DNA of 64,000 nt from Candidatus Micrarchaeota archaeon (GCA_022627495.1 JAKEGJ010000029.1:42408-106407); one strand, 5' to 3'. Positions 5,595 through 39,208 are shown, counted from the first letter of the stretch. Notes: generated by a model not told the origin, from the letters alone. Numbers and translations are program-made.

Positions 5595-5666
5595 GCGGAT
5601 AGCATTCATTGGGTGGGCAGGGGCGGAGGCGCCCCTGTAATACAATAAAAAAGGGAGGGAGAATGC

Positions 5667-9883: not shown

Positions 9884-9900
9884 AATCAGGGTGGGAGAAT

Positions 9901-18613: not shown

Positions 18614-19012
18614 TCAAATTTTCAAAGTATCCTTCACCATCGCGATGAAATGCTCCGTCTGTTCAATGTATATCTGCGCATCTTCGTAAGAGAATGCTTT
18701 CTTCCCATAATCAGCCCCGCTTTTATCCCTCATCGCATTAGCTATCAATGCCTTGAAGCCATCCGCTCCTTGCGGGAGCTTGCCTTCCCTTGCGATCTTC
18801 ATGAATACGATTGCCGCATCGTCGTGGCGAGTCGATTTGTGGCCGAGGAATTTCAGGGAAAGCGCGTCATTTGCACGGATTATCGAATGGATCGCCTGGG
18901 CGCAGCAGACATTGGCCCGTGCGTCATCCCCCTCCGCATCAATTAATCCCTGCTTGGCCGAGACTAGCCAGCTCTCAGCTTCCCGTAACGCTCGTATCGG
19001 CGAGTCCGTCAT
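18614..19012 (-). CDS. HEPN-domain protein (toxin of a HEPN-MNT pair)
   Basis: Helical HEPN pattern AESWL..A, AQAIHSIIRANDAL, H, R....ADY, A....E. Overlaps the MNT stop. Confidence 0.8.
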   Translation of the reverse strand: MTDSPIRALREAESWLVSAKQGLIDAEGDDARANVCCAQAIHSIIRANDALSLKFLGHKSTRHDDAAIVFMKIAREGKLPQGADGFKALIANAMRDKSGADYGKKAFSYEDAQIYIEQTEHFIAMVKDTLKI

Positions 19013-19551
19013 TTCAATCTCTCCCCTTTCTTATCTGCCATGAAGTCTTCGAGTTCTTTTCTGTCTAGGAACGTGATCGGCACGATCTTGGTCCCGAACT
19101 TCTCAAACACCTCGAACACAATGCTGTTCGCATCATACCCTTTCATCACAAGCAGAGCGATATCGATATCGCTCATCGGCTTCTCTTTCCCTGTAGCCAC
19201 GCTCCCGAACAGATAAGCCTCTTTTACGCTGCTTTCTTTGGCAAGCAGGTCCCGAAGTGCCCGGACTGTGAATGCCTGAGGGCTCATGCTTATCTTCAAG
19301 AGGGAGAGGACCGAATCCAGATATTCAGATTTATGGAGCTTGATCGTCACACTCTTCCCGACCTTTCCGGTCTCGATGATGCCTGCAGGCTCCCATTTCC
19401 GGACCAATCGCCATGCCGAGGCGAAAGGAACTCCGGCCTCTTTCGCAAGCTCGTTTATCGTGAACTGCCGCTTGGGGTACTTCACCAGCGTTTCAAGGAG
19501 CTTCCGGGAGCCCTTGTATTTGATCAGTTGTATCGCTTCCATTCGAATCAC
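19009..19551 (-). CDS. wHTH-fused minimal nucleotidyltransferase (MNT antitoxin)
   Basis: N-terminal HTH FTINELAKEAGVPFASAWR and LFGSVATG...SDIDI. Confidence 0.88.
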   Translation of the reverse strand: MIRMEAIQLIKYKGSRKLLETLVKYPKRQFTINELAKEAGVPFASAWRLVRKWEPAGIIETGKVGKSVTIKLHKSEYLDSVLSLLKISMSPQAFTVRALRDLLAKESSVKEAYLFGSVATGKEKPMSDIDIALLVMKGYDANSIVFEVFEKFGTKIVPITFLDRKELEDFMADKKGERLK

Positions 19552-20673: not shown

Positions 20674-21368
20674 GAAATGCTGAATCCGACGCTTGTCTAT
20701 GGTTATTCGTCGACCCTTTCATTACCGGGCAGTCTTTTTAACCTCTGGCCCACAGAGGAGAAATCGGCGGACGGAAGCCATCTGGCTAAACTTAGACCAG
20801 ATTTGAAGGATTTATGGCGGTATTTGAGGCCTTTGCGACCGGCAGGACGCCGGGTTGCCAATAGTGGAACGCGGTAAGCGTTCCACTGCTGCTCTGAGTA
20901 CACTGAGAAGGTGCGACCTCAGGCCGAATTCGTGTTCATGCCGAGCACGTGGTGTTCATGCGAGCGTAGCGAGCCAACGAAAAAAAACGAGGCCAGTGAA
21001 CAAAAATGCAGGCGCACTTGGCCGCGGCCAAGGCTCCATGCATCCCGCAAGGGATGCAATCTGCAAGTTTTGGGCCGCCTTTTCCTAAAAGGCGGAATGC
21101 AGGAGGAAAATGCCGAGCCCAGGGCTCGGAACAGAACCGTTTCAGTCCCGAGCGCTTGGTTCGAATCTTCCCTCCTGCAATATCCTATTGGTTCAGGTCA
21201 GAACAGAGCCCTGTTTTGACCTACCAACCGAGTGCTGTTCTGAGGAGAGAACTATATAAAGCTAGGTCTGGCGTTAGCTTGGCCAAAGGACCACTCTCCT
21301 CATTAAATATTCTGATAAGCATATTTTTATCAGAAATTTATTTATATTAGAATAATTATATGTAAATC

Positions 21369-21722
21369 ATGGCTGATTACAAAGGGTTATCCGAGTATGT
21401 CCGAATGAAGATAGAAGGTAGAAGTTTCAAGAATGAAAAATACAGGTGGTACATCAAAGAGTTACTTCGATTAGAAGGATATGCCATCAGAGGCCGATGG
21501 TGGCGCGGAAGCGCATATGAGCAAGGTATTGGTTATCTTCATGATAAAGAATTCACGGCTATCCTGAAGGAACTTAATCCTAAAAAGTACCCTGAATGGT
21601 TGAACTGGTTCAAGGAAGAGAAAAGGGTTGAGCAAGAACGAAATCGGAAAGAGGCTCTTGGAAAGAAAAAGCTTGAAGCCGCCGAGAAAAGATGGTGGGT
21701 GAAGATGGGCGGAACCATCTGA
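21369..21722 (+). CDS. Hypothetical basic protein
   Basis: 117-aa ORF after an AT-rich promoter-like tract; no motif recognised. Confidence 0.6.
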   Translation: MADYKGLSEYVRMKIEGRSFKNEKYRWYIKELLRLEGYAIRGRWWRGSAYEQGIGYLHDKEFTAILKELNPKKYPEWLNWFKEEKRVEQERNRKEALGKKKLEAAEKRWWVKMGGTI

Positions 21723-21724
21723 GT

Positions 21725-21871
21725 TCACTTAGTCCGTATGCCATCCTTAATCAATTGCTCTTTTTCCTCACCGGTAAGTTCCTCTTTATTTACTAATTTC
21801 CTTGTAATCTCCTGGTATCTGCCTAGTTTTCGTTTTATGTTACCTATTATGTATGCCTCGTCGCCGTACAT
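21725..21871 (-). CDS. 48-aa ORF, third gene of the Argonaute operon
   Basis: Manual translation MYGDEAYIIGNIKRKLGRYQEITRKLVNKEELTGEEKEQLIKDGIRTK. Starts 4 nt after the helicase stop, with GGGGTGA as RBS. Confidence 0.55.
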   Translation of the reverse strand: MYGDEAYIIGNIKRKLGRYQEITRKLVNKEELTGEEKEQLIKDGIRTK

Positions 21872-21875
21872 GTAT

Positions 21876-24536
21876 TCACCCCGTTGAATCTTCCATAACT
21901 TCGCGCTTGAACTCTTCGATGACTGCTTTGCATATTAGGTGTTCGCAATCCTTCTCCGCGAGTGCCTTAAGGAAAGAATCCGGATCCTTCTTCCATAGTA
22001 AAATCTGATTAATTTTCCTTGTCAGTGTTTCGAAAGCCGACTTTGCCGGTTGGGCTTGGTCAAGGCGAAAATCGACTGTACCGAGATTAACTGTTGTTCT
22101 AAGACCCACATACCCAATCGCAATCTTGATTTTTTCGAGCTGTATTCCATTCGCCTTCGCATAGGCACGCCTATAAGCTTCGAGTTGTTGTCTATGCTCC
22201 GAGCCCCGGCTGTCGTTCTTGTCAGTCTTCCAATCAAGAATCAAATAAGAATCGTCATTCTTGAATATCGCGTCTATATACCCTACAAATTCTACGCCTG
22301 CTCCGGTTCCAATTAACTGGTCCAAGGGAATCTTTACAAGTTGCTCTGATAGCACTGTTTCAGGATAATGCAACTTAACTTCGGTTATCACCTGCTTTAT
22401 GTTATCTGCATAAGGAGCGGTTTTTTCCGTTACATTATACGATTCACCCTTCAGAATTGCTTCAGCAAGAGTATGAACCTCAGAGCCAAGGCTTAATGAT
22501 GGCGCGTACTCCCTTATTCCGAGTAAATTATTTTCGATATACTCGCATGGGTCTGTTTCAAGAGATGAAAATGAGACGTGATCCAGGCCTTCGAAATGTT
22601 TTTTAACGAAATTTCGGATCCAACCCCTTTTCTCATTAAGTAATGCACCAGATCCTTCTACGTCACCGTTTACGAACAATGCATATGCCCGCTTCAATCT
22701 CTCTGCTAGTTCGAATCCTTCGGTTCCTTTCACCTCAATCGGCTGCCTCTCGCTTGCCTCGTTGATGTAATCTTCAATTTTGTCAGGAATTATATGAAGG
22801 CTTTCCTCTGCCCTGGTCAGCGCTACGAACGAAATCCTCAATGCCTCTTCATTAAGTTCCTCTTCGGCATCTATGCCTTTTGTCTTTAGAATAGCCTTTA
22901 CTACCTCATCTTGGAAGTTATCACTGTCCCTCGTTTTTCGGGGAACATAAATTACAGCTGGGAACTGCCTCCCCTTGGCCTTGTGGACAGTTGTCAAGAC
23001 AACCTTTTTCTCGACATCCGACTCATCAACAAGGAGATCCGAAGACTTCAGATAGCTTATGACCTCCCAGTAGCTTATCTTATCCAGTGCGGAAAGCGCC
23101 TCGTTAAACGCTTTCTGCATGGCCAATGCTGCCAGAAGATATTCTTTACCATAAGCAGTGGCAACGGGCAGTATTCTTGTCCTGAACAAAGCGTTTACAT
23201 CCTCTATAGTCTTTACCGATTCACGCATATGCTTGAAATCCGGACTTTTTTCGAATATATCGTTAATGGTTAAGTTCTCTTGTTTTGTCAATTCAAAAGC
23301 ATCCTGGATGGGGATAGGAAAGAACGGTGTAAACATCGAGTTGACAACGTCATCAATATCATTACTCAGTACCCCTCTCAAAAAGCCTATTGTATGCGTT
23401 CTGGCATCGTCTGACGCTGAAAAATAGGTCGAGGAATGGTCAATCCCTCTTCTCTGCAACTCCTGGGATATCTTTAGTATCTGAAAGTTTGTTCTTGCGA
23501 TAATAGCAATCTTTTCGTGCTCTTTCATGAGCCTATTCGTTAGTTCGCCCACGGCGGCAAGCGAATCTTCGCTGGCGACTTCATATACAGTCGGTTTCTT
23601 GCCGCCGCCTTTACGTGGATTTCTGAGGTCTTTTAACTCTTCCCTATGAAGCGCGTCCTTTGTTTTCGAAACCAGGTATTTTCGGGAAAAATCTAGAATT
23701 GCGCTGGTGCTCCTAAAGTTTTCTGACAAAACAAATGTCTTCGCCTTTGAGAATTTCTTAAAGTTGAGTACGGATCCCCCTTGGAAGCCGAAAATGGCCT
23801 GCTTCTTATCTCCAACCGCAAAAAAAGTCTCTCCGGACTCAAGAGCGATCTCCGCCTCCATCGTGTTTACATCTTGCAGCTCATCGATTAGCACATACTT
23901 GAAACGCCGCTTGTTTTTTATCTTCAAGAAGTCGATAAGCATATCCGCATAATCGATTCCTTTCTCTTTTTTCACCTGCTCGTAATGCCTGTACACGTCG
24001 ATGAAAGACTCTGCAAACTTGTCCATCTCCTCTTTTGAGAGGTTTTTATATGGTCCCAACAAGTTTTTTACCTGCTGAATGTCGATATCATCAGGAAGGA
24101 CCCCGAAACTCTTCAGGTAACGAATAAGGTTTTCCATCTTTGGGACAATGGTGTCTATTAGATAGTCATCCCCGTAGCGCAAGAGCTCGTTTTCCCTGAA
24201 ATATCTATAGATTGCATAGCGCAATAAGTTAGCGGGAATCGTTTCATCACGGCCAATCTGCTCGAGCGCATACGCGTGAAACGTAAAGACGTTAAGGTTA
24301 GCATAATCGATTGCAAGGCTATCCCCTTCAAGTAAGTGTATTATCCGCTCTTCCATTTCTTTTTTTGCCTTTTTGGTAAAGGTGAGGCATAGGATATCGG
24401 TCGGCTTGATGCCTTCCTTTATGAGTTTGATGTATTTGTGGGCCAATAGCAGGGTTTTCCCAGTTCCGGGATTGGCGATCACTAAGGTGTCCCCCTTATG
24501 ATCCAGTATTTCAAGCTTTTCCTTGTTTAGCGTCAT
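21876..24536 (-). CDS. UvrD/AddA-like SF1 helicase fused to a C-terminal PD-(D/E)XK (RecB/Cas4-like) nuclease
   Basis: Motifs I ANPGTGKT, Ia LTFTKKA, Ib TFHA, II DELQD, III VGDKKQAIFGFQG, IV NFRS, V TVHKAKGRQF and VI FVALTRA. Nuclease motifs G..VH, GYIDAI, ILDWKT and QLEAY. Confidence 0.93.
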   Translation of the reverse strand: MTLNKEKLEILDHKGDTLVIANPGTGKTLLLAHKYIKLIKEGIKPTDILCLTFTKKAKKEMEERIIHLLEGDSLAIDYANLNVFTFHAYALEQIGRDETIPANLLRYAIYRYFRENELLRYGDDYLIDTIVPKMENLIRYLKSFGVLPDDIDIQQVKNLLGPYKNLSKEEMDKFAESFIDVYRHYEQVKKEKGIDYADMLIDFLKIKNKRRFKYVLIDELQDVNTMEAEIALESGETFFAVGDKKQAIFGFQGGSVLNFKKFSKAKTFVLSENFRSTSAILDFSRKYLVSKTKDALHREELKDLRNPRKGGGKKPTVYEVASEDSLAAVGELTNRLMKEHEKIAIIARTNFQILKISQELQRRGIDHSSTYFSASDDARTHTIGFLRGVLSNDIDDVVNSMFTPFFPIPIQDAFELTKQENLTINDIFEKSPDFKHMRESVKTIEDVNALFRTRILPVATAYGKEYLLAALAMQKAFNEALSALDKISYWEVISYLKSSDLLVDESDVEKKVVLTTVHKAKGRQFPAVIYVPRKTRDSDNFQDEVVKAILKTKGIDAEEELNEEALRISFVALTRAEESLHIIPDKIEDYINEASERQPIEVKGTEGFELAERLKRAYALFVNGDVEGSGALLNEKRGWIRNFVKKHFEGLDHVSFSSLETDPCEYIENNLLGIREYAPSLSLGSEVHTLAEAILKGESYNVTEKTAPYADNIKQVITEVKLHYPETVLSEQLVKIPLDQLIGTGAGVEFVGYIDAIFKNDDSYLILDWKTDKNDSRGSEHRQQLEAYRRAYAKANGIQLEKIKIAIGYVGLRTTVNLGTVDFRLDQAQPAKSAFETLTRKINQILLWKKDPDSFLKALAEKDCEHLICKAVIEEFKREVMEDSTG

Positions 24537-24557
24537 AGTATCACCTTAACCTCATCT

Positions 24558-26846
24558 TCATCTTGGAATGTACGGCACAGTAATGTCCTCCTTATTCAGT
24601 TTCGCCAGATTTTGGACGATGTGCAATGGTAAAATAGTCTTGGGCTGCGCATAGATAGAACTCCAATCAAGGTAGCGCAGTTCGTTAAAAATCTGCGACA
24701 GCTGCAGTACGTCCATGTCGGGCGTTATCTCAAAATCGATATTAAGACGCAATGCTGCAGGACTGCCCTTTCGTGTTCTTGCAGTTACTAGAATGGCGTG
24801 CTTATTGTCCCGAGCTATTGCCACCTCGCTTATCATGAATTGCTGCTGCGGAGTACCATAAACCCGATACGGGCCGGATTTCACTACGGATACAATACGA
24901 ATATTGCTTTTTTCCGACATTATTTTGTGCTCTTCAAGCTCTTTTTTGGCTTCTTCCGCTCCTTGCCGGTAACCGGGGAGTTCAGTATGATGAATCCGTC
25001 CGTCTTTGAAGAGGATGATTTCATCGACCTTTGCACCGGTGGTTTTCTCAGTTTCAAGGTAAGCATCCGAAGCCGCATCGAAAAACCACTGTTTCAATTC
25101 CTCAGAAGAGACCAGTTCCCCGCGATGAGACCCTAGTGTTTTCCTATGTAGGACGCGTCCAAGATTATCGCAGACTGCCGCATATGCTGCGGATTCTTTA
25201 TGATTCTCAGGATTGCGTGATACGTCGAATCCCATAAAGTAGGTTTTTTTCTTTTCATCCATGTTCCCCGCAGGTTTGGCGAGATGCCAGATGGACTCGC
25301 CCTTTTTTAAAGATTTATCGTACATCTGCACGGCCATAACTTGGATTCGGGGCAATACATATTTGTCAAAATTTGGATTGGCTTTTGCCCCTTGTGCTGC
25401 TTCAATAAAATCCGTCGTAATCATCTGGCTTGAAATTGACTTGTCGCCGAGGGCCTTTTTTGCGTAAAAATACGTCTTCGGACTAAGTTTTGGTATTACA
25501 GTCAAAGTAACTGCTTCGGGTACCGCGTTCATTCTTTTTATCGATAAAGCATATCCGGTCGGATTAGTCAATTCCACGATATTCAAAGGCTCCAGTAACT
25601 CAAAACGAGCAAGGTGAAACGCAGCAGCTACGCGATTTAGCTCTTGGAAGAAAACTTTGACTTTGTTCTCGTATCCTGGCGGGCAAACGCATTGCACCCC
25701 GACAACCTCTTTATGGGTTATAGGCCCGAAACTGCTAAGGCAGTATTTTATATTTGGGCCCCAGTTAGATGGAGGACTTCGGTTGTCGCCTCCAAAAACG
25801 AGCTGCGGCGAGCTAAGGAGATACGGCTTTCCGTACACTTGGTTTTCTTTTTTCATCCAGTCGAAAAGCCCGGTATTGATTCTAACATTCGTGCCTCCTA
25901 CCGAAAGTGGTTCAGAAAATAGTCTTGTTGCCAACTGTAGCGTCTCTTTAACCCGTTGCTCGGGACCATAATCAATCTTTAATTTTTGGGCTTGATCCAG
26001 CAATTCATCTCCCAAGTCGATGAGTACTTCGACAAGATATGGTGGAAAACTGAGGGGTTCGGACTTGCCCTTTACCTTTATCTGAAGAACCGGGCCATCA
26101 TCCTTAGAAAGTGTTATCCCCCTGCTTCGGAACCATCTTTGCCAATTTGGCGAACCGTTCAAATAGTCATAAACCGTCGTGCCATTAGGAAGGTGGTAAT
26201 CACCGATGCTTTGAAAAATCACATCGGATACCTGGCCATTGTAACTTCCTACGCCAGGCGCAACACTAAAGCAACTAACCCATCTGCCCTTAAGGTAATC
26301 AAGTATTTGCTCATGGTTGCTTGGATATCCGAAACGCTTCAATAAGTTAGCTACCGGTTGCCTCCAGACTATTTTCGGATCAACCCATATTCCGGCTCGG
26401 CCATCCGGGAAGACTTCAACATCGAAGGAAAAACCGCGGTAATACTCTAGGATATCTACCTTTACCGGCGTTTTTTCGGTACATGCATGCTTTCGTAGGT
26501 CAAATACATACCCCAGCTCTTGGCACCTTGACTTGAAGGCGCCATGGAGCATTTCCTTGAATAATTGCGGCCACTCCCTGCAGTTTGCCTTCCGCGGAGT
26601 GGTTGAAAGGTTAAATGAAATTCCATCGACAATCTCCTTTGGTTCAAGACCGGGGGAGTCGTTTACGAAGACTGATTCGCCTTGATTAAGAACGGCCACG
26701 GCAAGGCCCCGGGATGACAAGCGCCAAGCAAGCTTCCTTGAATACTTAAATTTGCTGGTTGAATCAACCTCTGAGGCCAACCTGTATTCCCGAGTCGTCA
26801 TCTCGGTAAACGCAACCCCTTCGCTTATAAAAAAGTTAGACAGCAT
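24558..26846 (-). CDS. ago: Long prokaryotic Argonaute (N-L1-PAZ-L2-MID-PIWI)
   Basis: PAZ-like TVYDY...PVLQIK...FPPYLV. MID Y-K-Q-K (YFYAK, SSQMI, MYDK). PIWI MGFDVS, RGE, LFKDGR, LDWSS and PLHIVQNLAK. ATG 26846 is preceded by GGTGA. Confidence 0.9.
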   Translation of the reverse strand: MLSNFFISEGVAFTEMTTREYRLASEVDSTSKFKYSRKLAWRLSSRGLAVAVLNQGESVFVNDSPGLEPKEIVDGISFNLSTTPRKANCREWPQLFKEMLHGAFKSRCQELGYVFDLRKHACTEKTPVKVDILEYYRGFSFDVEVFPDGRAGIWVDPKIVWRQPVANLLKRFGYPSNHEQILDYLKGRWVSCFSVAPGVGSYNGQVSDVIFQSIGDYHLPNGTTVYDYLNGSPNWQRWFRSRGITLSKDDGPVLQIKVKGKSEPLSFPPYLVEVLIDLGDELLDQAQKLKIDYGPEQRVKETLQLATRLFSEPLSVGGTNVRINTGLFDWMKKENQVYGKPYLLSSPQLVFGGDNRSPPSNWGPNIKYCLSSFGPITHKEVVGVQCVCPPGYENKVKVFFQELNRVAAAFHLARFELLEPLNIVELTNPTGYALSIKRMNAVPEAVTLTVIPKLSPKTYFYAKKALGDKSISSQMITTDFIEAAQGAKANPNFDKYVLPRIQVMAVQMYDKSLKKGESIWHLAKPAGNMDEKKKTYFMGFDVSRNPENHKESAAYAAVCDNLGRVLHRKTLGSHRGELVSSEELKQWFFDAASDAYLETEKTTGAKVDEIILFKDGRIHHTELPGYRQGAEEAKKELEEHKIMSEKSNIRIVSVVKSGPYRVYGTPQQQFMISEVAIARDNKHAILVTARTRKGSPAALRLNIDFEITPDMDVLQLSQIFNELRYLDWSSIYAQPKTILPLHIVQNLAKLNKEDITVPYIPR

Positions 26847-26871
26847 CTTTTCACCGTTCAAACTAAGGAAT

Positions 26872-26920
26872 CCGATATATTTAAAGTTATTTTACTTAAT
26901 AAGTTTAATAAATTTAATAA
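26872..26920. promoter_or_regulatory. Divergent promoter region with three TTAATAA repeats at 9-bp period
   Basis: TTAATAA at 26896, 26905 and 26914, and TATA-like TTTAAATATA on the minus strand, between ago and the DUF6293-type gene. Confidence 0.5.
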
Positions 26921-26932
26921 CCGGGTAAGCGG

Positions 26933-27661
26933 ATGAAAAACGTCAGACTTAGAGTCCATATAGCACCCCTCGGGTTCGAAATAGACAGAATCGTCTTACC
27001 ACTTCAAGAATTGAAGGCAGATAAGGTTTGGCTATTGACCCACAGTAAGGGGGACCAGGCATCAGCCTATCGTGAAAAGGTGATTAGCCTCCTGGAGAAG
27101 GCGGATATACGTCATGAGCTTGCCGAGTGCGACATAACGGATCTTTATGATGTGCTCCGAACCTTTAGATTGATAATCGAGAAAGAAGCTGAGAATGACA
27201 TTTTCATAAACGTATCATCCGGTTCGAAAATCGAGGCAATCGCCGGAATGATGGCCTCAATGATTTTCAAAAACGGCACCCAGATAACCCCATATTATGT
27301 CGTCCCTAAAAAATATCTCGTTGAACCCGAAGGAATCCCTCTCACCGAAGGTGTTGAATCCATTAATGCCCTTCCAGAGTACCGAATGGAACAGCCCAAA
27401 AAGCAGCTCCTTGACGTCCTAAAACTTATTGATCAAGCTGGGGGGGCAATATCGAAAAAAGACCTTATCGAAGAGGCAGAACGGCGGGGATTGATAGTTG
27501 TAGGGGGAAGGAATCCTACCCAGTCAAAATATATCAGCCTAAACAAGAATTATCTCGAACCGCTTCAAAGCTGGAAGCTTGTAAAAATTCAAAAGGATCG
27601 GCGCTGGAAAAACATTTTACTAACGGACGAGGGGAGAAACATGTTACGGTTCTTAGGGTGA
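26933..27661 (+). CDS. DUF6293/HFX_2341-type regulator: CARF-like Rossmann domain plus wHTH
   Basis: RVHIAPLGFEIDRI, ADKVWLL and INVSSGSKI (CARF-like), with C-terminal wHTH ending LTDEGR. Confidence 0.8.
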   Translation: MKNVRLRVHIAPLGFEIDRIVLPLQELKADKVWLLTHSKGDQASAYREKVISLLEKADIRHELAECDITDLYDVLRTFRLIIEKEAENDIFINVSSGSKIEAIAGMMASMIFKNGTQITPYYVVPKKYLVEPEGIPLTEGVESINALPEYRMEQPKKQLLDVLKLIDQAGGAISKKDLIEEAERRGLIVVGGRNPTQSKYISLNKNYLEPLQSWKLVKIQKDRRWKNILLTDEGRNMLRFLG

Positions 27662-27711: not shown

Positions 27712-28776
27712 ATGCAGATTGTGAAAAGTATCGTATTCCGTAAGCTTACAGATGCCGATTTCTTTCACATCAATAAACCTGCTGGAACTGAAACGGGGGG
27801 TGGGGGGCAGTCCTATATCGATATATCGACCTCAGCCGTTACCTTGAATAATTGGAAGGAGTTTTTTCACGGAATAACTCCTTTTCAAAGAAGTGGGCGA
27901 ATAGGTTGGAAAGTACCCATCCATAGTTTAGGGACTAAAACGCCTGCTCAAGAAATTACTATTGCGGAACGTCGTGATACTAGTGTCAGTATCCGTGAAC
28001 AAAAACTATCCAGCAGAGAAAGTAATCGAGTATATGCATGGCATCCAGACTATACAGATTTTCCAAAACCCACCAATCCATCGGAGAAAGAGCATATCTA
28101 TGATCTCCGTATCTATATCGTAAAATTAGAGAATGGAGAATACTGGGCAGGATGGTTGAATAGAAGTCGTCCTGAACCAAACTGGTCGGTGAATAAAGAT
28201 CTCAATGAAATTTTCCTGAAAGATGAGGGTTATATCAAATTTAACGGAAATACTCTTTTTGAGGAAGCTGATTCTGAATGGTCATTTAGAATAGCACCCG
28301 CAACCGCCACCCAAATTACCGATCCAATTGTTCCTACAACTGAGTTAGAACGAAAAATTGATGATAGAATATTATTTGATGAAGATGAGGGCGAAACTGA
28401 AAATAATCCTCCGGTGATTAAAGAGGTCGTCAGGAAAATAAGAATAAGAAATACCAAAGCAGTTAAACAACTTAAACAATTATACGGGAATAAATGTCAA
28501 ATATCGGGAGAAATATATACATTTCAGAAGAAAGATGGCGAACTCTATTCAGAAGCACATCATCTAATCCCATTGGGTGAAGGGGGGGCCGATTCAGCAC
28601 ACAACATTGTGATATTAAGCCCACTCCTCCACCGCATGCTCCATAACGCAAAAGTCGAGAATCTAGACCTTAGAAATATCAAGGATAACAAATTAACAAT
28701 AAAAATTAATGGAAAGGATTATACTATTACTTGGCATCCCGATCATGCGAAAATTGTGGAACAATTTAACCAGTAA
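27712..28776 (+). CDS. HNH endonuclease, probable restriction enzyme
   Basis: RN...V..LK..Y..KCQI, YSEAHHLIPLGEGGAD..HNIVILSPLLHRMLH. Convergent with two MTases. Confidence 0.8.
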   Translation: MQIVKSIVFRKLTDADFFHINKPAGTETGGGGQSYIDISTSAVTLNNWKEFFHGITPFQRSGRIGWKVPIHSLGTKTPAQEITIAERRDTSVSIREQKLSSRESNRVYAWHPDYTDFPKPTNPSEKEHIYDLRIYIVKLENGEYWAGWLNRSRPEPNWSVNKDLNEIFLKDEGYIKFNGNTLFEEADSEWSFRIAPATATQITDPIVPTTELERKIDDRILFDEDEGETENNPPVIKEVVRKIRIRNTKAVKQLKQLYGNKCQISGEIYTFQKKDGELYSEAHHLIPLGEGGADSAHNIVILSPLLHRMLHNAKVENLDLRNIKDNKLTIKINGKDYTITWHPDHAKIVEQFNQ

Positions 28777-29839
28777 AAAGGTGGAATAGATATTCAGTTA
28801 CGTGCTCTTCAGCCTTTTCATTCCTACTCTTAAACCGTTTATGTTTGAATTCTTTTACTGAGATATCGCCAAAAGATTTGAAAAATGACATAAGTTGCTC
28901 TTTAGTAAGAAGCCCATCGCTGCTATAACTTATAAGAAAGTGTTTGCAATCCATCTCTGTGATTATCTTTGTAAACGCTCCACGGATTTTGATTTTCGAA
29001 CAAAAATCAGAGTACTCATCTCGCCAAGGTCTCAAACCACTTTTTCCAATTGCTGAGGGTTCGTCCTCCTTTGCTATCGTTTCAAGCAGATGGTAATTAG
29101 CCGCATATTGTCTTTTGATATAAGGGGGATCAATGTAACACGTATCTGCTTTGATGTCCTTGGCCAGTTCTTCTGCATGTCCATGTTTGACATCATGGCC
29201 GTCAAGTTTACCTCCTTTTTCAAAATTTGTTGGTGTAAGTTTTAACGGAACTCTCGCTCGTTGCACGAATTTAGATAAGTAATGGCCATACGTTCCAGCG
29301 ATATTTGCTACGTCATTGGATGCTAATATTAGGTCATGAATGAGCAAGGAATGCTCAATATCTGTCAAATCCCCGTTCATCTTCGCTTCTTTTATGAATG
29401 CTCTAATCGCATCAATTTTTTGAGCATTTTCTCCTGTGAAATATTTTCGTGGTTCAAATCCATTTTGTGGTTTGCCATCTGAACTGAACTCACGCCAAAA
29501 AAAACCCTTTATCCCTTCCAAATTATTTAGCGTATATATCATTTGCAAATAACCCGATTCATCTCCTAAAAATTGTTGTTTACTTTCAGATAAGTATTTC
29601 TTAACTCGTTCAAACCTTGGGGGGATTTGAAGGAAAAGTTTAGCTTTAGTAAGTAGGCATGCTTGGAGCATAACGTCGCAAGCAATTACTCGATATCCTC
29701 TTTTTCTTAGTTCAACTGAAATTGCACCTGTGCCACACATCAAATCTACTACTGTTCCATTTGGAGGGGTTACCCTACTCACCTCCTCTAGTATTCTATC
29801 ACTTATCTTCTTTTTTGCCCCGATATAACGGTATCCCAT
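28766..29839 (-). CDS. DNA adenine methyltransferase (alpha class, D12/FokI-like)
   Basis: RYIGAK, DLMCGTG, YIDPPY, QYAANYH and ISYS motifs. Confidence 0.9.
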   Translation of the reverse strand: MGYRYIGAKKKISDRILEEVSRVTPPNGTVVDLMCGTGAISVELRKRGYRVIACDVMLQACLLTKAKLFLQIPPRFERVKKYLSESKQQFLGDESGYLQMIYTLNNLEGIKGFFWREFSSDGKPQNGFEPRKYFTGENAQKIDAIRAFIKEAKMNGDLTDIEHSLLIHDLILASNDVANIAGTYGHYLSKFVQRARVPLKLTPTNFEKGGKLDGHDVKHGHAEELAKDIKADTCYIDPPYIKRQYAANYHLLETIAKEDEPSAIGKSGLRPWRDEYSDFCSKIKIRGAFTKIITEMDCKHFLISYSSDGLLTKEQLMSFFKSFGDISVKEFKHKRFKSRNEKAEEHVTEYLFHLFTG

Positions 29840-29848
29840 GAATAGCCC

Positions 29849-31618
29849 TTACATTGTTTTTCTAAAGATTTCTTCAGTATCAATTTTTTTGAGTTCTCTG
29901 ATAGGAAGAAGTTCGTCTGATTCATTTATTGCATTGAATATTATTTCATAATCCTTCTTTGTGAGCGAAAACAACTTAGCGATAAAATATTCTATTTTGG
30001 CATCGGTTTCATCATTTGGTTTTTTCCCATTCTTTAATATTGGGCGAAGTAACTTAGTTATCCTATTTTTTATCTTGATATTCTCTTTATTTTTAAGATT
30101 TGGTAGAGGTAAATTGGCAATCTGTGATTGGGTAAGATACGGGTGTGATCTCCATTCCAATTCTCCAAATGCTTTAATTAGATAGAAATAGTACGCTCGT
30201 GAATTCAATAATCCGATGTAGAACTCTAAATCATCGAGTTCCATTTTTGATTTAACGATATATACGACCTGGCTTGTGTAAGAATCGCTATAATCGAGTG
30301 CCGCAGTAATGCCGACCCCTGTCTTTCGAATAAATATTTTAGGACTTCTATACAGTTCTGGTTCTTTGTAATTAATCCCCCGGAACCCCAATTCAATATA
30401 TTTTGAAGGTGAAGTAGAATACCGCTTCAGATCACCCCCTCTTATAAGACTTGCAGACTTTTTTGTTTTCTTATTTGTTACAATTGTCTCTTGCTTTGCG
30501 GTGGCGGTGTTGATTTTTTTCCCGCAATACGGACAATTAGTGATTGGTTTTTCCGACAATGGCATCCACAATGAGCAGTAATTGCAAGCAAATACTTTAC
30601 CTGAACTACTTAACTCTACCCCTCTTGATATTGTGAGAACATCGTCTAATCTGCCATTCGCAGGTTTCAACTTCTTTATCACATTGGTTTCTGTTTCTTT
30701 AAGGTCTATGTCGAAGCGTTGAAAGTCATTATTCCTAAATCGTTGTTGGGGCACTATATGAATATTTTTTCTCTCTGATTCCTTGAAGCTCAATTGTCCC
30801 TTCAATATCTTGTTCCTATCATTACTCGTGAGTCGAAAACAATCAACTTGACCTAACTTTTTTGGTGGAGCGTTTCTGCATATAATAACAACACAAGATC
30901 TATTCACTCGCGGAAATAGTTTTTCGCCTAAACGTGCAATGAATCTTATCTCTGTTTTTTCAATTAAAACATTGCGAAGAATGCTCTTCTCGTGATTCAG
31001 TATAGAATCCGGTACGATGAATGCAAAGTACCCTCCCTTCTTAACAATTTTCAATGCCAGCTCCATAAAAAGTTCAAACGAATCAAATTGCCCCTGTAAT
31101 GTTTTGAAATCCGCAACTCTAAGTTGTTTTTTATACTCGGACAAATCTGCGCCCCACGGCGGATTTGTTATTAAAAGATCAAAACCCTCCGTTACCCCGG
31201 TTTTTTTGAAGATAGTTTTCCATCCCGAAGTTAGAGATGTATTTTTTATAGGGCAAAGTGCATTTGAATTTAGAAGCCGAAACTTCATTTGATTTGAGTC
31301 CAATTCTGTTAATCTATTTTTACTGGCTTCAATGGCATTGCAATCGATGTCAATACCAGAAAAAATGATAGAATCACGTTTCATTATTTCTTTTTTTATC
31401 TCAACTGCAACTTTCTCAAGAAGAACCCCATCTCCAACTGCAGGATCAATAATACTGATACTCCTTTTGTTTTTGATTTGGCCATCCTTTTCCACATACT
31501 CTACGAGCTTGTGAGCAACATACTCCGCAAGATTATCCGGAGTATATACTGCTCCATTTTTTTTGACGAGTTTAGAATCGTCAGAAACATTCTCAACTAA
31601 CTTAGCAAATGAGTTCAT
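29849..31618 (-). CDS. N6-adenine DNA methyltransferase (gamma class, TaqI/Eco57I-like) with zinc ribbon in the TRD
   Basis: GAVYTP, IDPAVGDG, GIDID and NPPW; CNYC...CPYC; TaqI_C-like GLLNS...LP. Confidence 0.9.
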   Translation of the reverse strand: MNSFAKLVENVSDDSKLVKKNGAVYTPDNLAEYVAHKLVEYVEKDGQIKNKRSISIIDPAVGDGVLLEKVAVEIKKEIMKRDSIIFSGIDIDCNAIEASKNRLTELDSNQMKFRLLNSNALCPIKNTSLTSGWKTIFKKTGVTEGFDLLITNPPWGADLSEYKKQLRVADFKTLQGQFDSFELFMELALKIVKKGGYFAFIVPDSILNHEKSILRNVLIEKTEIRFIARLGEKLFPRVNRSCVVIICRNAPPKKLGQVDCFRLTSNDRNKILKGQLSFKESERKNIHIVPQQRFRNNDFQRFDIDLKETETNVIKKLKPANGRLDDVLTISRGVELSSSGKVFACNYCSLWMPLSEKPITNCPYCGKKINTATAKQETIVTNKKTKKSASLIRGGDLKRYSTSPSKYIELGFRGINYKEPELYRSPKIFIRKTGVGITAALDYSDSYTSQVVYIVKSKMELDDLEFYIGLLNSRAYYFYLIKAFGELEWRSHPYLTQSQIANLPLPNLKNKENIKIKNRITKLLRPILKNGKKPNDETDAKIEYFIAKLFSLTKKDYEIIFNAINESDELLPIRELKKIDTEEIFRKTM

Positions 31619-31969: not shown

Positions 31970-32821
31970 ATGTCTAAGCATCTTGTTGTGATCGGCGATT
32001 GCCGGAACATGGCTGAAGTGGAAGATGGCTCGGTCCAGCTCGTAGTAACAAGCCCGCCTTATTTCAATGTCAAGGACTATGGCATTGACAACATCGGCTC
32101 GATTGACGAGTACGACGTATATCTGCGAGCCATGCGCCAGGTTTTCAGCGAGTGCTACCGGATTCTGGAAGATGGCCGTTATTGCTGCATTAACGTCTCG
32201 GACGTGATAAGCGGCGAGTCGAAATACCCGATTCCGTCCCATTACGTTAGCATTCTCCAGCGGGCCGGATTCGCCTACCGTGATGATATTGTCTGGAAAA
32301 AGCCAAGCGGCGTAGGGGCCAAGGCTAGCGGAGGGAGCGGCAAGCGGTTCGGCACGCTCATCCAGAACCCCTTTCCGATGTACTATTACCCGAACAACAT
32401 CTACGAGCATATCCTCATTTTCAGGAAAGGAAAGTTCGATTTCAAGACGGTCAGCATGCAAGAGAAAGAAAAGGCCCGAATCGACATCGGAGAGGCAAAG
32501 AGGCGCTGGAGCAACGATATCTGGGAGATGGTCCCGGAAATCAAAAACAAGTACAACCGGGACACTCACCCGGCCATGTTCCCGGAAGAGCTGCCCGAAG
32601 CGCTTATCCGACTTTACACGTACCCGGATGAAACGGTCCTTGACCCGTTCCTCGGCAGCGGCACTACAACCAAGGTAGCCCGCCAGCTCGAGCGCAACTC
32701 GATAGGGTATGAGATCAACCTCGCCTACCTGCCGATAATCGAAGAAAAGGCGGGTTTTGAGGGGCCGGATCCGGATTTTCGCGTTATCATAAGGCAAAAT
32801 GGTGATATGCATGAGGACTAG
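31970..32821 (+). CDS. Site-specific N4C/N6A DNA methyltransferase (beta class)
   Basis: VTSPPY precedes HPAMFP and DPFLGSGTT. Confidence 0.92.
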   Translation: MSKHLVVIGDCRNMAEVEDGSVQLVVTSPPYFNVKDYGIDNIGSIDEYDVYLRAMRQVFSECYRILEDGRYCCINVSDVISGESKYPIPSHYVSILQRAGFAYRDDIVWKKPSGVGAKASGGSGKRFGTLIQNPFPMYYYPNNIYEHILIFRKGKFDFKTVSMQEKEKARIDIGEAKRRWSNDIWEMVPEIKNKYNRDTHPAMFPEELPEALIRLYTYPDETVLDPFLGSGTTTKVARQLERNSIGYEINLAYLPIIEEKAGFEGPDPDFRVIIRQNGDMHED

Positions 32822-33122
32822 GGAGTTGTTATTGGGAATTCTGCTGGCGGGACTTTGTATCGCTGCTCCGCTCAGTATACCCGCCGATCAGCCGATATGC
32901 AACCTTTACGGCATAATCAAGGTCATCGGTACAATTGTAGGTGTGCTGATGGCAGCTTATGCGGGCTTCATACTGGCAAGCACCCACGAGCTGACGGAAA
33001 GGAATGCGGCCAAGGCATTGCTTAGCGGAGTTGCGATAGGCCTGATAATCATCTGGCTAGCTCCGCTCATCGTAACCAATCTGGTAGGGGCAAGCGGCAG
33101 CGTTTGCGGGTGGACATCGTGA
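32811..33122 (+). CDS. TrbC/VirB2-like pilin
   Basis: Signal plus two TM helices, and ERNAAKALLSGVAIGLIIIWLAP pilin-like pattern. Confidence 0.7.
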   Translation: MRTRELLLGILLAGLCIAAPLSIPADQPICNLYGIIKVIGTIVGVLMAAYAGFILASTHELTERNAAKALLSGVAIGLIIIWLAPLIVTNLVGASGSVCGWTS

Positions 33123-33343
33123 TTGACCTGTCAGCGATAGCCACCTCAATCAGGCTGGTCGCGATTTTCTTTTCTGTCGTGATTATGGGCTATGCAGGTC
33201 TGATAATCGCGACAAGCAGCGACCCGATGGCCAGGAATGAGGGCAAGGAGATAATAGCTGGGGTTGTAATCGGCCTATCGATTCTGTTCCTCGGGCCGGT
33301 TATCTCATCCGCTTTGACAGGAGGTGTTTACTGTCCTGCCTAG
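33119..33343 (+). CDS. Second TrbC/VirB2-like pilin
   Basis: YAGL..ATS.DP..RNEGKEIIAGVVIGL. Paralogous to the previous gene; GTGA overlap. Confidence 0.7.
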   Translation: MIDLSAIATSIRLVAIFFSVVIMGYAGLIIATSSDPMARNEGKEIIAGVVIGLSILFLGPVISSALTGGVYCPA

Positions 33344-34838
33344 ATTTTTCCTCCTGCTTCTGGTTCCTTTGGCCTTTGCTGGCTACCAGCATCATGACTA
33401 CGTAAGGGATAGCGATTATCATGGTCCCACGCCAGTCAACGATACGTTAATCGACAACTGCCCGGCGCTAGGGATAGACCAAAGCGTATGTGATGCGGCA
33501 AATAGCACCAATCTTACAAAAACCGCGAAAAAAGCGCTTATCCTTGCAGCCTTGAATCCTGATGCCACCCTACCGGATTATGGGTTTATTGATGCCTGGA
33601 ACGCCGGGATGGGTTTTGGGAAATACCCGCCATTCGGTGTAGCTCCTATAAGCAGCGGTTCGATACGGGATGCCTGGGTAAAGATAGTCGATATTTGGCC
33701 TTCGGTCATTGAAGGCAATGAGACGTTATTGAACGATACGGGCAAGATTAGGGCCAGGTACGGGTTTACCTTCGTTTTGCCTGATAAAACGGCTTCGGGG
33801 GACTGTAAAACCGGTTATAGCGCCGATGGATACAACTACAGCCTTGAGATCCTCCAGAACGGGACAAATCTCAGCGAAAACAACGAAAAAGACGCTGATT
33901 TCAGACTTAACGAAAGCATCGGTCTCTTCCAAGCAAACCTTTCGATTGCCAGCGGCTATAAGGCGCGTCATTATGTCTGGGTAACCCACTGTGACGATGA
34001 CGACGATTGCCATGAAACGTGCGAATACGCATATACCCAGAATGTTACGGATCAGCTGAACCCATCTGATTCCAAGACCGGGCAGCTCTACAATTTCAGC
34101 TATGCCGCCAAATCGATGGTGGATGCTAACCATAGCGGCCTTCTGGACTTCTGGTTTTCATATAACGTTAGCGATGATTTCTCTGAGATAGTTTTGGAAA
34201 GCGGGAATTCGAACATACGAATTCGGGGAACGGAGTACAGGCTAATCGCGCTTTATGAACCGTACAACATCCTTACCTACGACGCGATACCAAAGAATAG
34301 CTCGGCTTTTCCCTATTACGCCCCGATTATCTACGACAATCAGACCGAAAACTTGACTTCGGTTCAAAGAACGATACGAACGTTTATCCCATACTCCGAC
34401 AATTGCACAATTGCCTTTCAATCGCATTTCAACAGGACAATAATCCCGCAATTCTGCAATGTAACGAATCAGACGCCGATTCTCAACGTCTCGATTGCCG
34501 AACGCCTTGACGATTCAACTGTATTGGACGTTTTATTCTATGATAACACAACCGGGCAGCCATTCCCAAACAAGCGGTTAGCGGTCAGGTTTGACGGTCA
34601 AGAGAAGAATATCACAACCGGCCCATCCGGCAAGGCAAAGATTACCATCCCGATTTCTGCTGGACTTGTGAGGATCTCATTCATTACCGACCTTGAAGCC
34701 AAGAGCGCTGAAACGATAGTCGTTCTTGCCCAACAGCCGGACATTAACGAACAAACCCTGCTAGGCTTGGTCCTATTGCTGCTCGCCCTGCTTCTCGCTT
34801 ATCGGATAGGTACGAGGTGGATTAATGCAATGGCTTAG
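33324..34838 (+). CDS. Secreted, C-terminally anchored glycoprotein in the transfer operon
   Basis: Signal peptide, many N-x-S/T sequons, a CDDDDDC loop and a C-terminal TM segment. Confidence 0.7.
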   Translation: MFTVLPRFFLLLLVPLAFAGYQHHDYVRDSDYHGPTPVNDTLIDNCPALGIDQSVCDAANSTNLTKTAKKALILAALNPDATLPDYGFIDAWNAGMGFGKYPPFGVAPISSGSIRDAWVKIVDIWPSVIEGNETLLNDTGKIRARYGFTFVLPDKTASGDCKTGYSADGYNYSLEILQNGTNLSENNEKDADFRLNESIGLFQANLSIASGYKARHYVWVTHCDDDDDCHETCEYAYTQNVTDQLNPSDSKTGQLYNFSYAAKSMVDANHSGLLDFWFSYNVSDDFSEIVLESGNSNIRIRGTEYRLIALYEPYNILTYDAIPKNSSAFPYYAPIIYDNQTENLTSVQRTIRTFIPYSDNCTIAFQSHFNRTIIPQFCNVTNQTPILNVSIAERLDDSTVLDVLFYDNTTGQPFPNKRLAVRFDGQEKNITTGPSGKAKITIPISAGLVRISFITDLEAKSAETIVVLAQQPDINEQTLLGLVLLLLALLLAYRIGTRWINAMA

Positions 34839-38700: not shown

Positions 38701-39208
38701 ACCTGAAAAGAAGCCGAAATTGAAGGGAAAAATCAGCCTCGACAAAGGACTGTATCTAAAGAAGGAGATTAGCGAAGACGAGGAAGCTTATCTCCTGCAA
38801 AACGGCTACGAACCTTGTAAGGGGAGGACTTCAAAGGATGGCGGATCAACTTGGTACTTTGTCAAGATTAGGCATAATGAAAGCCAGGAACATGCGTTTC
38901 TCTGCTGGACTACCTATGAAGCCGCAAAAAGGCGATTCGATAACGTAGAAATGAATACGACCCGCTGCGGAGATGTCGTGATAGATACGGGGAGAAAGAA
39001 GATAGCCTTTGAAATCGAGACTGGAGCGAACTTGAAACAATATTCGGATGAGTTTCTTAGACAAAAGTTTCAGCAACTTGATGATGAATTCGATGAGTAT
39101 TACATACTCGTTTCCAAATACAATTTTCAGAAGCGGTATAAACGATATGGAAAAGTAATCCTGAGAAACAAGATAGAAGAAACCCTTGCAGGGATAGGGA
39201 GACAATAA
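35786..39208 (+). CDS. PrgI/VirB3-like + VirB4 ATPase + C-terminal PD-(D/E)XK-like domain fusion
   Basis: N-terminal YDIPDEIKYREKII..L..RQL plus 2 TM. NKHFFIIGISGSGKS, ILDPNGEY, IDEGW, SRKFN and TQ motifs. C-terminal ESQEH...GDVV...AFEIETG. Confidence 0.85.
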   Translation: MAYDIPDEIKYREKIIANLDSRQLIYAALFGFLAFLAFRLPVEGELKFALPTLISLTGVGFIFLNLGERIREVFSFYFAFRKAEYKESAAQKFFEVKSVSDNVIHLDNGKRLAVLEVQPVNFRLLDDGRKLALISNYKAFLNQLMTPVQILVRTKSVSLEDYFNKTNSRRIKDGLLLALYSDFRIFEEDFLSSNSIKERQFYLIVPFTKNTIPDKQIPPLKLLEDIMSITQEKLEACGLEMRRLNDAEITDLLYSYGSSSEDNEERPDDLFNSIVGRITSGINRIKTLNRHFPGYAWQIKLGPENVTPPLLRNTKKTPEIFSLGKARGASSFQSIGDMGLCPPPSTILQFAGSDILHPKQNIKITGRQIGYKIPRNRMCPLGSGKLVWPESFGGWIKDDVEPEPGNFRQDITPSFDIRKNCAYVNEEIHRIVKVSGYPRKVEDGWLQAFLTKNENYDIIMHIDPASINARLVYLHNQIIQQTSDLVMSTSKGTPNPALEIKKADTTRVYDSLYKGEEKMFDVSIYLDNHAPTIPDLGLLTEKCKSNLNAQMMVPKVTEWRMADGIKSTLPIAFNPLAAGRDFLTNSLAASFPFISPSNTKKNGILFAREADTMTPLFLDFKGMNNKHFFIIGISGSGKSYTSKYLMMQQLFAEDTKVFILDPNGEYVPLCKSLGGQVIELSRGSQSTINIFDLGGNDYSDKMLSLLSAFDIIVGGLTESQKGVLSKVLTRAYARKGVIHSRPETWDRDAPTFSDVRDAALEIKAEFAGGNEYLKDPSIEALLNRIEMYCQSGLFGFLDQPSKLDVNKGFVCFDLSKLPNAVKNLLMFATLEIIRQEISKDKKPKIVLIDEGWSLLRSREVANYILEFVKTSRKFNTSLGFVTQEMEDLLRSRTGKSILNTASVKILMRQNPSNIDLISDTLKLNPATKEYLLTARNGHGLLFTEQNAFKFFVKASDKLHALITTKPEEQVQKPEKKPKLKGKISLDKGLYLKKEISEDEEAYLLQNGYEPCKGRTSKDGGSTWYFVKIRHNESQEHAFLCWTTYEAAKRRFDNVEMNTTRCGDVVIDTGRKKIAFEIETGANLKQYSDEFLRQKFQQLDDEFDEYYILVSKYNFQKRYKRYGKVILRNKIEETLAGIGRQ

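Follow-up and report, generated by a model that had tools for sequence, protein, structure and literature searches.

The 64,000-nucleotide stretch of Candidatus Micrarchaeota archaeon DNA studied here (GCA_022627495.1, JAKEGJ010000029.1:42408-106407; hereafter, the window) carries a tightly spaced pair of genes for a prokaryotic Argonaute (pAgo) and a helicase-nuclease, with a regulator gene oriented divergently from them. The host belongs to the Micrarchaeota, a group of the DPANN archaea, and its genome measures 1.45 Mb and is 82% complete. The open reading frame (ORF) of the long pAgo lies on the minus strand at 24558-26861 and has 767 codons when counted from the TTG at 26861. Translation probably starts at the ATG at 26846, giving a protein of 762 amino acids (aa); a GGTGA motif precedes this ATG, and the conserved N-terminus of the related proteins begins there. 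The second ORF (21876-24536, minus strand) encodes an 886-aa protein composed of a UvrD-type superfamily 1 (SF1) helicase and a RecB-type PD-(D/E)XK nuclease. The pAgo stop codon and the helicase ATG are separated by 21 nt (24537-24557, minus strand), and this spacer carries GGTGA, resembling a ribosome-binding site, 5 nt upstream of the helicase ATG, which implies co-transcription of the two genes. The initial annotation of the locus had described this same arrangement, and both ORFs, the spacer, and the motif were recovered in place. On the plus strand, a gene of 242 codons (26933-27661) encodes a winged helix-turn-helix (wHTH) regulator of the HFX_2341 family, which has a CARF fold; the AT-rich region between it and the pAgo gene (26862-26932) represents the divergent promoter region.

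The protein encoded by the first gene was recognized as an Argonaute, apparently a long one, in agreement with its earlier designation as a full-length pAgo. The PADLOC long-pAgo profile PDLC02428 matched residues 6-714 (E 4.6e-33), and a second PADLOC pAgo profile gave an E-value of 8.5e-27. PDLC02428 also matched the genomes of S. elongatus, T. thermophilus, M. jannaschii, and M. acetivorans, which presumably encode long-A pAgos. The Pfam Piwi family was matched with 23.7 bits (E 3.3e-5), under its cut-off of 28.9 bits. With only three sequences as input, AlphaFold2 (AF2) produced a model of low confidence (pLDDT 50.2); a Foldseek search with it returned full-length Argonautes in all the listed matches but one, with ~750-850 aligned columns, and was used solely for the gross statement that the protein is Argonaute-like from end to end. 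About 440 residues lie ahead of the MID domain, and the language-model look-alikes of residues 6-440 were clusters bearing PAZ domains (scores 0.86-0.93); the Pfam scan of the protein gave no PAZ match. We read the protein as a long pAgo and leave its clade unplaced. A sequence search of the PDB with the three-row pAgo profile produced 0 matches, and the search with the single sequence gave one chance-level match to another kind of protein and no Argonaute. The pAgo sequence is distant from every solved Argonaute.

The catalytic and guide-binding residues were located by alignment with the Argonaute of T. thermophilus (TtAgo), whose reference sequence was taken from plasmid pTT27. The hhalign comparison covered the MID and PIWI domains (probability 90%, E 1.4e-6), and the local motifs GFD, GE, DGR, and PLH coincided in the two proteins. 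The putative PIWI tetrad D546-E582-D620-Q750 aligned to D478, E512, D546, and D660 of TtAgo, which we take to be its catalytic residues, with their positions counted in the alignment. All four residues are invariant in the three known members of the clade, which are 43-74% identical. In the MID domain, Y464, K468, and Q479, also invariant in the three members, aligned to TtAgo R418, K422, and Q433, presumably residues of the pocket for the 5'-phosphate of the guide; the fourth residue of this pocket motif (Y/R-K-Q-K), a Lys, was not resolved by the alignment, and K516, K519, and K520 are candidates chosen by eye. The canonical tetrad is given as DEDX, where X is D, H, or K, in the text of Ryazansky et al. 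(2018; PMC6299218), and by that definition the tetrad predicted here, with Gln as its fourth residue, is non-canonical. Nevertheless, with D-E-D kept across such divergence, the site does not look decayed, as judged from the alignment.

The partner is a compact single-chain helicase-nuclease of the AddA/RecB type with an SF1A motor. Pfam families UvrD-helicase (7.3e-41), UvrD_C (6.1e-16), and PDDEXK_1 (PF12705; 1.4e-9) were matched, placing the UvrD-type motor at approximately residues 1-600 and the RecB-family nuclease at approximately residues 680-850. An alignment of 69 family members revealed invariant residues both in the motor (G24, G26, K27, T28; D218-E219-L220-Q221-D222; R275 and R575) and in the nuclease (H688, D755, D768-W769-K770, Q784, and Y788), a set that covers the Walker A, DExx, arginine-finger, and RecB-nuclease residues. 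Thus, the SF1 core motifs and the intact-looking nuclease that had been noticed in the single sequence proved to be conserved throughout the family. The AF2 model based on the same alignment had a pLDDT of 85.2 and a pTM of 0.76, and its best Foldseek match was AddA of AddAB (4ceh_A, E 1.4e-23), followed by UvrD, RecB, and AdnB/AdnA. Sequence matches in the PDB were consistent with this: the motor matched PcrA/UvrD/Rep, and segment 726-815 of the nuclease matched AdnB. A second subunit of the AddB, RecC/RecD, or AdnA-like kind was neither present in the window neighborhood nor recurrent beside the 24 helicase loci compared, which comprised the window, three other loci, and 20 of the higher-scoring among 39 places and are not a random sample. 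The nuclease domain matched the Cas4 equivalog only faintly (E 0.0073), and the Cys residues near it are not conserved across the helicase family. The best PADLOC matches of the protein were profiles of GajB, the UvrD-type SF1 protein of the Gabija system (E 3e-38). However, GajB itself lacks a nuclease domain and depends on GajA, an OLD-family nuclease, as its partner, whereas the nuclease is fused to the helicase here, and no OLD/TOPRIM ATPase-nuclease was found among the scanned operon neighbors; the locus was therefore not assigned to Gabija.

Full-length members of this pAgo clade were found at three loci: in the window, in a second Micrarchaeota metagenome-assembled genome (MAG) (G410:C43, locus L002), whose pAgo is 74% identical to that of the window, and in a Bathyarchaeota MAG (G411, locus L001), with ~42-43% identity. 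A helicase-nuclease gene lies downstream of the pAgo gene and on the same strand in all three, and thus in two archaeal phyla, so that the conservation of the gene pair, proposed as a check in the initial annotation, was observed in every full-length clade member found. The two genes lie 21 nt apart in the window and ~8 nt apart in L001, whereas in L002 an inserted ORF follows the pAgo, and the helicase starts ~4 nt after it. This inserted ORF (L002, 5367-5996), absent from the window and L001, encodes a 209-aa protein resembling DnaQ/PolB-type 3'-5' exonucleases (phrog_403, E 1.3e-11; weak Pfam matches) and may contribute a further DNA-end-processing activity to the same operon. The clade is rare: it was detected in 2 of 401 genomes of a Micrarchaeota phylum sample, in 1 of 41 relatives (the window's own genome), in one of the six genomes of the G410 family, and in 1 of 401 genomes of the phylum of G411, where one remote pAgo was also found. 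The constant pairing (3/3), taken with this rarity and with the occurrence of the helicase in 37 of 401 genomes, makes chance adjacency very unlikely. Since the window and L002 share a syntenic block of element genes, they are not independent, and the three pairs amount to approximately two independent cases.

Searches beyond these genomes added little to the clade. Scanning of metagenomes with the pAgo profile yielded nothing but one truncated fragment; viral contigs contained no pAgo match and gave two remote UvrD-like matches of the helicase only; and tblastn of the pAgo against plasmids found no match, while TtAgo used in the same way retrieved almost exclusively Thermus copies. A word-indexed search with the single pAgo sequence and with the three-row profile recovered the window's own protein only, a limit of the method, as relatives of 74% and 42% identity exist, and not evidence of rarity. 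In four other genomes of the phylum (G047, G172, G003, and G204; loci L027-L030), ORFs of ~300-510 aa matched the PIWI half of the pAgo profile with E-values of 1e-14 to 1e-17. They are probably short pAgos, and no homolog of the helicase-nuclease was present in the 3.7-3.8 kb around them.

The trees of the two partner genes are in conflict. The pAgo proteins of the window and L002 share 73.9% identity, and that of L001 is 43.2 and 43.5% identical to them, whereas among the helicases those of the window and L001 are the closest (70.5%), and that of L002 is 61.2 and 62.1% identical to the two. Accordingly, the window and L001 fell into a seven-row group with an SH-aLRT support of 98 in the 39-row helicase tree, and L002 was placed outside it. 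The conflict shows that the pair was re-formed, or one of the partners replaced, at least once, and the re-pairing always stayed within one helicase subclade. Such re-assembly points to selection for the combination; at the same time, the re-assortment weighs against the idea that the pAgo and the helicase meet at an interface shaped by fine co-evolution.

We interpret the locus tentatively as a DNA-interference operon borne by a mobile element, in which the pAgo works with its co-transcribed minimal AddA/RecB-type helicase-nuclease in a cooperative loop, a reading we consider quite possible, if short of probable. The SF1A motor would load onto invading plasmid or virus DNA at its ends or nicks and unwind it in the 3'-5' direction, and the RecB-type nuclease would cleave the displaced strand, releasing short DNAs with a 5'-phosphate. 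The pAgo would take up these short DNAs as guides in its MID pocket, bind complementary invader DNA, and probably nick it. The nicks would serve as new entry points for the helicase-nuclease, which would degrade the target and yield more guides, closing a positive loop; transcription of the operon would be controlled by the CARF-fold/wHTH protein. The sequences themselves establish the gene order, the domains, the intact motifs, and the recurrent pairing, whereas DNA guides, their production by the partner, slicing at a D-E-D-Q site, contact between the proteins, and the role of the regulator are predictions. Support for this cooperation comes from the invariant D546, E582, and D620 and Y464, K468, and Q479 of the pAgo, which have aligned counterparts in TtAgo; from the likeness of the partner to AddA, RecB, and AdnB in both sequence and fold, with its catalytic residues invariant; and from the tight operon, its location in a defense-rich mobile island (described below), and the exonuclease-like ORF of L002. 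We favor the loop on account of this anatomy, of the conserved and re-formed pairing, and of precedents for guide supply by DNA-end-processing enzymes. The end-resection machines RecBCD and AddAB are reported to provide long-A pAgos with DNA guides, and ACE1, a Cas4-family nuclease, is described as binding the MID-PIWI lobe of its pAgo and processing guides (Bobadilla Ugarte et al., 2025; PMC12094033). Contact between the two window proteins is likewise conceivable; a predicted complex of pAgo residues 350-767 and helicase residues 590-886 scored 0.00, and no conclusion was drawn from it.

A number of observations weigh against the cooperative loop. The fourth tetrad residue is Gln, and target slicing by this pAgo is something that we infer. 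A model with a pLDDT of 50 does not establish the N/PAZ lobe of the protein or the type of guide it uses. Only three full-length pairs are known, about two of them independent, and the metagenome fragment mentioned above (L021, 1-444), which corresponds to pAgo residues 541-656 with 46% identity, is not followed by a helicase gene in the next 5 kb; its frame closes early, and it is possibly a decayed copy. The pAgo-linked helicases are of the same length as the pAgo-free ones and have no added domain. Of the 37 genomes with a helicase ortholog (E<=1e-100), 35 gave no match to the pAgo-clade profile, the 401-genome samples used for the two genes appearing to be the same draw, and the helicase-nuclease clearly has a function of its own without the pAgo. 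The host may also possess another route of end resection, as a NurA homolog is encoded elsewhere in its genome. Thus, the earlier suggestion that the partner serves a host lacking RecBCD can be retained only in part: the helicase-nuclease is the sole UvrD-family helicase found in the 82%-complete genome, but NurA is present.

The wide occurrence of the helicase family bears on another explanation, namely that the two genes are mere neighbors, the helicase-nuclease being a stand-alone repair or defense enzyme, widespread among DPANN archaea and moving between defense islands, and the pAgo a separate system. A word-indexed search with the helicase produced 680 matches, of which the best 120 are 50-71% identical over the full length and span DPANN, Bathyarchaeota, Nitrososphaerota, and one Leptospiraceae record. 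Orthologs in 37 of 401 genomes, compared with 2 of 401 for the pAgo clade, speak for this explanation and contradict the initial description of the partner as dedicated to the pAgo. Of the 24 helicase loci compared, 3 adjoin a pAgo gene and the other 21 contain none. The more distant helicases (36-45% identical) adjoin housekeeping genes such as those for tRNA-guanine transglycosylase, SMC, and a pilus ATPase. Two close pAgo-free helicases adjoin defense genes: a type IIG restriction-modification (R-M) gene and a PLD-SNF2 gene in L058, and R-M subunits and GmrSD in L076, which belongs to the same genus as the window. Moreover, in 7 of the 24 loci a distant HFX_2341-like regulator accompanies the helicase with no pAgo between them, and the regulator and helicase may thus form an older unit. 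Nevertheless, we consider simple neighborhood unlikely, as it does not account for a helicase immediately downstream in each of the three clade members from two phyla, with spacers of 4-21 nt, or for the conflicting trees, which show that the pair was re-formed and not merely inherited.

In pairing an Argonaute with a helicase that carries a fused PD-(D/E)XK nuclease, in residing on a mobile island, and in its presumed action against plasmids, the window locus recalls the DdmDE system of Vibrio cholerae (PMC11795196), to which the initial annotation had likened it. The analogy stands, whereas homology does not. According to the published description, DdmD is a DinG-like superfamily 2 (SF2) helicase-nuclease with 5'-3' polarity whose dimer is auto-inhibited, and DdmE lacks catalytic activity (PMC11795196). 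The window partner, in contrast, is an SF1A enzyme of the UvrD/AddA kind, as shown by the UvrD-helicase match, the PcrA/UvrD/Rep matches, and the AddA fold, and its pAgo keeps D-E-D with Gln in the fourth place; membership in DdmDE was rejected on account of the SF1A partner. No sequence relation to DdmD was apparent among the best 25 of the 48 PADLOC matches either.

A mode of action resembling that of DdmDE could still have arisen here, with a non-slicing pAgo as a guide-directed sensor and the helicase-nuclease as the sole effector; in such a scheme, the pAgo would bind invader DNA, open an R-loop-like structure, and pass the displaced strand to the helicase-nuclease. The non-canonical Gln, the gene order, and the tight coupling fit this possibility. 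Further support is found in the survey by Ryazansky et al. (2018; PMC6299218), the text of which reports putative nuclease genes to be commoner in the operons of catalytically inactive pAgos, and in DdmDE itself, where degradation of the non-target strand is ascribed to a helicase-PD-(D/E)XK nuclease recruited by an inactive pAgo (PMC11795196). However, the invariance of D, E, and D at only 43% identity would be unusual for a dead site. The partner has an SF1A motor with 3'-5' polarity, belongs to a mostly pAgo-free family, and bears no pAgo-specific domain, and the re-assortment of the two genes speaks against a finely co-evolved handover interface. We regard both the sensor-effector division of labor and the strand handover as rather doubtful.

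Among known systems, APACE1, which has a long-A pAgo, is similar to the window pair in that the gene of a long pAgo is accompanied by that of a RecB/Cas4-family nuclease with the PD-(D/E)XK fold (PF12705 in the window), and its nuclease ACE1 is reported to make and trim guides and to boost interference (Bobadilla Ugarte et al., 2025; PMC12094033). It differs in that ACE1 has no helicase and is described as cutting only single-stranded DNA (PMC12094033), whereas the window nuclease is fused to a full SF1A motor and could act on duplex DNA from its ends. The APACE1 pAgos are also reported with an intact DEDX tetrad (PMC12094033), in contrast to the archaeal and very divergent window pAgo with its fourth-place Gln. 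The locus was not included in APACE1, as its nuclease is not a stand-alone Cas4-family protein but is fused to the helicase. The partner further matches, in fold and motifs, AddA, RecB, and AdnB of the AddAB, RecBCD, and AdnAB complexes that act with stand-alone long-A pAgos such as CbAgo and TtAgo. Those are housekeeping complexes encoded elsewhere in the genome, whereas the window enzyme is a single 886-aa chain with no second subunit nearby, belongs to an archaeal host, and shares the operon of the pAgo.

The pairing had been regarded in the initial annotation as not known to be characterized, which appears correct as far as experiments are concerned. A literature search of main texts, passages of the archaeal defense survey PMC12988326 among them, found no experimental study of such a pAgo/helicase-nuclease pair, and helicase-associated long-A pAgos are called uncharacterized in the text of the 2025 APACE1 paper (PMC12094033). 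The combination itself is not entirely new, since the 2018 survey already lists, as og_6, UvrD-helicase/P-loop proteins with PD-(D/E)XK motifs enriched in pAgo operons, which match the window partner both in their domains and in their genomic relation to pAgos (Ryazansky et al., 2018; PMC6299218). In the text of that survey, og_6 is an entry without a clade, mechanism, or experiment (PMC6299218). The window pair is thus a real, uncharacterized variant of accessory-assisted pAgo immunity and not a new category.

A bolder extension is that the pAgo confers programmable specificity, as a subunit, on a minimal AddA-like resection enzyme made of a single chain. The pair would then be an independently evolved archaeal counterpart of DdmDE, based on SF1, which conjugative-like elements of DPANN archaea carry to eliminate rival plasmids and viruses. 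We offer this as a speculation with a modest chance of being right. It would entail, with no better prospects, that guide-matched sites set where the helicase-nuclease loads or is licensed to degrade, that the modules are swapped between elements, and that a CARF-fold sensor-regulator is in control. How pAgos obtain guides and turn recognition into destruction of duplex DNA without RecBCD or AddAB is an open question, especially in archaea, and the pairing is a good candidate for learning how DNA-end-processing enzymes help Argonautes. As an end-processing helicase-nuclease is hard-wired into the pAgo operon, such dependence becomes testable with two genes. The partner, a minimal AddA-like enzyme of one chain whose archaeal family is widespread yet unstudied, is also of interest in itself, and the unusual D-E-D-Q site, together with the distance from the solved Argonautes, could widen the view of catalytic requirements. 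In addition, a helicase-coupled pAgo could aid the building of tools, since pAgos act poorly on double-stranded DNA; such a case has been made for CbAgo with RecBC (PMC9071414).

The operon lies in a mobile, defense-rich mosaic island. The GC content is 0.36-0.52 over approximately 18-44 kb of the window, compared with 0.57-0.65 in the flanks, and the archaeal island recognized in the initial annotation was substantiated by an integrase, Cdc6/Orc, a TraG/VirB4-like ATPase, a gene resembling type IV secretion system (T4SS) pilins, R-M genes, and GmrSD. Three genes on the plus strand are syntenic with G410:C43: an N6/N4 DNA methylase (31970-32821), the T4SS-pilin-like gene (32799-33122), and a gene for a 504-aa protein to which no family was assigned (33324-34838). 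They are followed by genes for a 1140-aa TraG/VirB4/HerA-like ATPase (35786-39208), Cdc6/Orc (39520-40587), an Lrp/AsnC regulator (40724-41158), the GmrSD type IV restriction enzyme (41686-43620; GC ~0.34-0.41), and a tyrosine integrase (43702-44919). Judging by its gene content, the segment 32799-44919 resembles the backbone of a conjugative element. The block common to the window and G410:C43 consists of the 504-aa gene, the pilin-like gene, the N6/N4 methylase, the regulator, the pAgo, and the helicase. In G410:C43, the backbone genes adjoin the regulator directly, whereas in the window they are parted from it by an inserted low-GC cassette (27712-31618; GC ~0.37) that is absent at the same place in G410:C43 and encodes an HNH-domain protein (27712-28776), a D12-class adenine methylase (28766-29839), and an Eco57I/TaqI_C-type methylase (29849-31618). 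Neither a tRNA gene nor a flanking direct repeat of >=13 nt was found at the ends of the island. In L002, a gene for an AIPR (abortive-infection) protein (8698-10458) lies just past the helicase in convergent orientation, indicating that this locus is also a defense island.

This setting raises the possibility that the operon serves the mobile element, in DNA processing for transfer or integration or in the exclusion of sister elements, and not the defense of the host. The contiguity of the operon with the pilin-like, TraG/VirB4-like ATPase, Cdc6/Orc, and integrase genes, and the synteny of the block with the operon in the second genome, speak for such a role. In L001, however, the pair adjoins a rhomboid-like gene, with no T4SS genes visible on the short contig, and the helicase family is mostly found outside such elements. 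Furthermore, no conjugation system is known to use an Argonaute. We therefore hold an element-serving function to be very improbable.

The divergent gene encodes, as the initial annotation had recognized, a CARF-like/wHTH regulator: it matched HFX_2341_N (1.2e-39), the winged helix of DUF6293_C (1.4e-18), Csa3_N (4.1e-6), and the PADLOC profile CARF3 (9e-73), and is composed of an N-terminal CARF-like Rossmann domain and a C-terminal winged helix. The regulator is conserved at the same divergent position in L002 with 66% identity, the only locus available for this comparison, as the L001 contig stops at the pAgo. A search of the genome, which is 82% complete, detected no Cas10, so that a cyclic-oligoadenylate signal has no evident source. 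In the intergenic region 26862-26932, a TATA-like TTTAAATATA lies ~35 nt ahead of the pAgo ATG. TTATTAA words are reiterated there, positions 26886-26921 hold an imperfect inverted repeat of 17 nt, and the region is a possible operator. Its counterpart in L002 is also AT-rich and has reiterated ATTAAGT words and no inverted repeat. Promoter and terminator scans, in which archaeal promoters are not represented, returned no more candidates than shuffled sequence did. A look-up of sequencing runs listed no RNA run that contains the sequence, and the one DNA run containing it may be the source sample.

The regulator-like proteins near other helicases are of ~200 aa, with a weak HFX_2341_N match and an ArsR-type HTH, and were observed within ~5 kb of the helicase in seven of the 24 loci (L066, 2901-3494; L067, 10863-11456; L002, 13879-14490; L059, L065, L069, and L071). 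Their hhalign comparison with the window regulator gave a probability of 89.6%, and in two of the seven loci the gene is directly upstream of the helicase on the same strand. The link between regulator and helicase may be older than the pairing with the pAgo, and the ~200-aa protein together with the helicase may represent an unrecognized regulator-helicase module of DPANN archaea.

Several other genes were noted around the operon and its relatives. The 48-aa ORF that the initial annotation had placed after the helicase exists (21725-21871, minus strand) and begins 4 nt past the helicase stop codon, but it is not conserved: tblastn at E<=10 across the collected loci matched the window's own DNA alone, and scans with Pfam, PADLOC, and further profiles gave no family match. 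It is probably not part of the system, and two small plus-strand ORFs (21006-21722) were likewise rejected as components, having no family match and no conserved counterpart. In the high-GC flank, an 817-aa ORF (9577-12030) matched no Pfam family at E<=0.001. A Pol-beta-type nucleotidyltransferase gene (19009-19551) overlaps a 132-aa ORF (18614-19012) that has no Pfam match, and the two have the look of an MNT/HEPN toxin-antitoxin pair. Finally, beside a helicase homolog in L063, an AAA+/TPR protein (3761-6448) carries an intein with a LAGLIDADG endonuclease.

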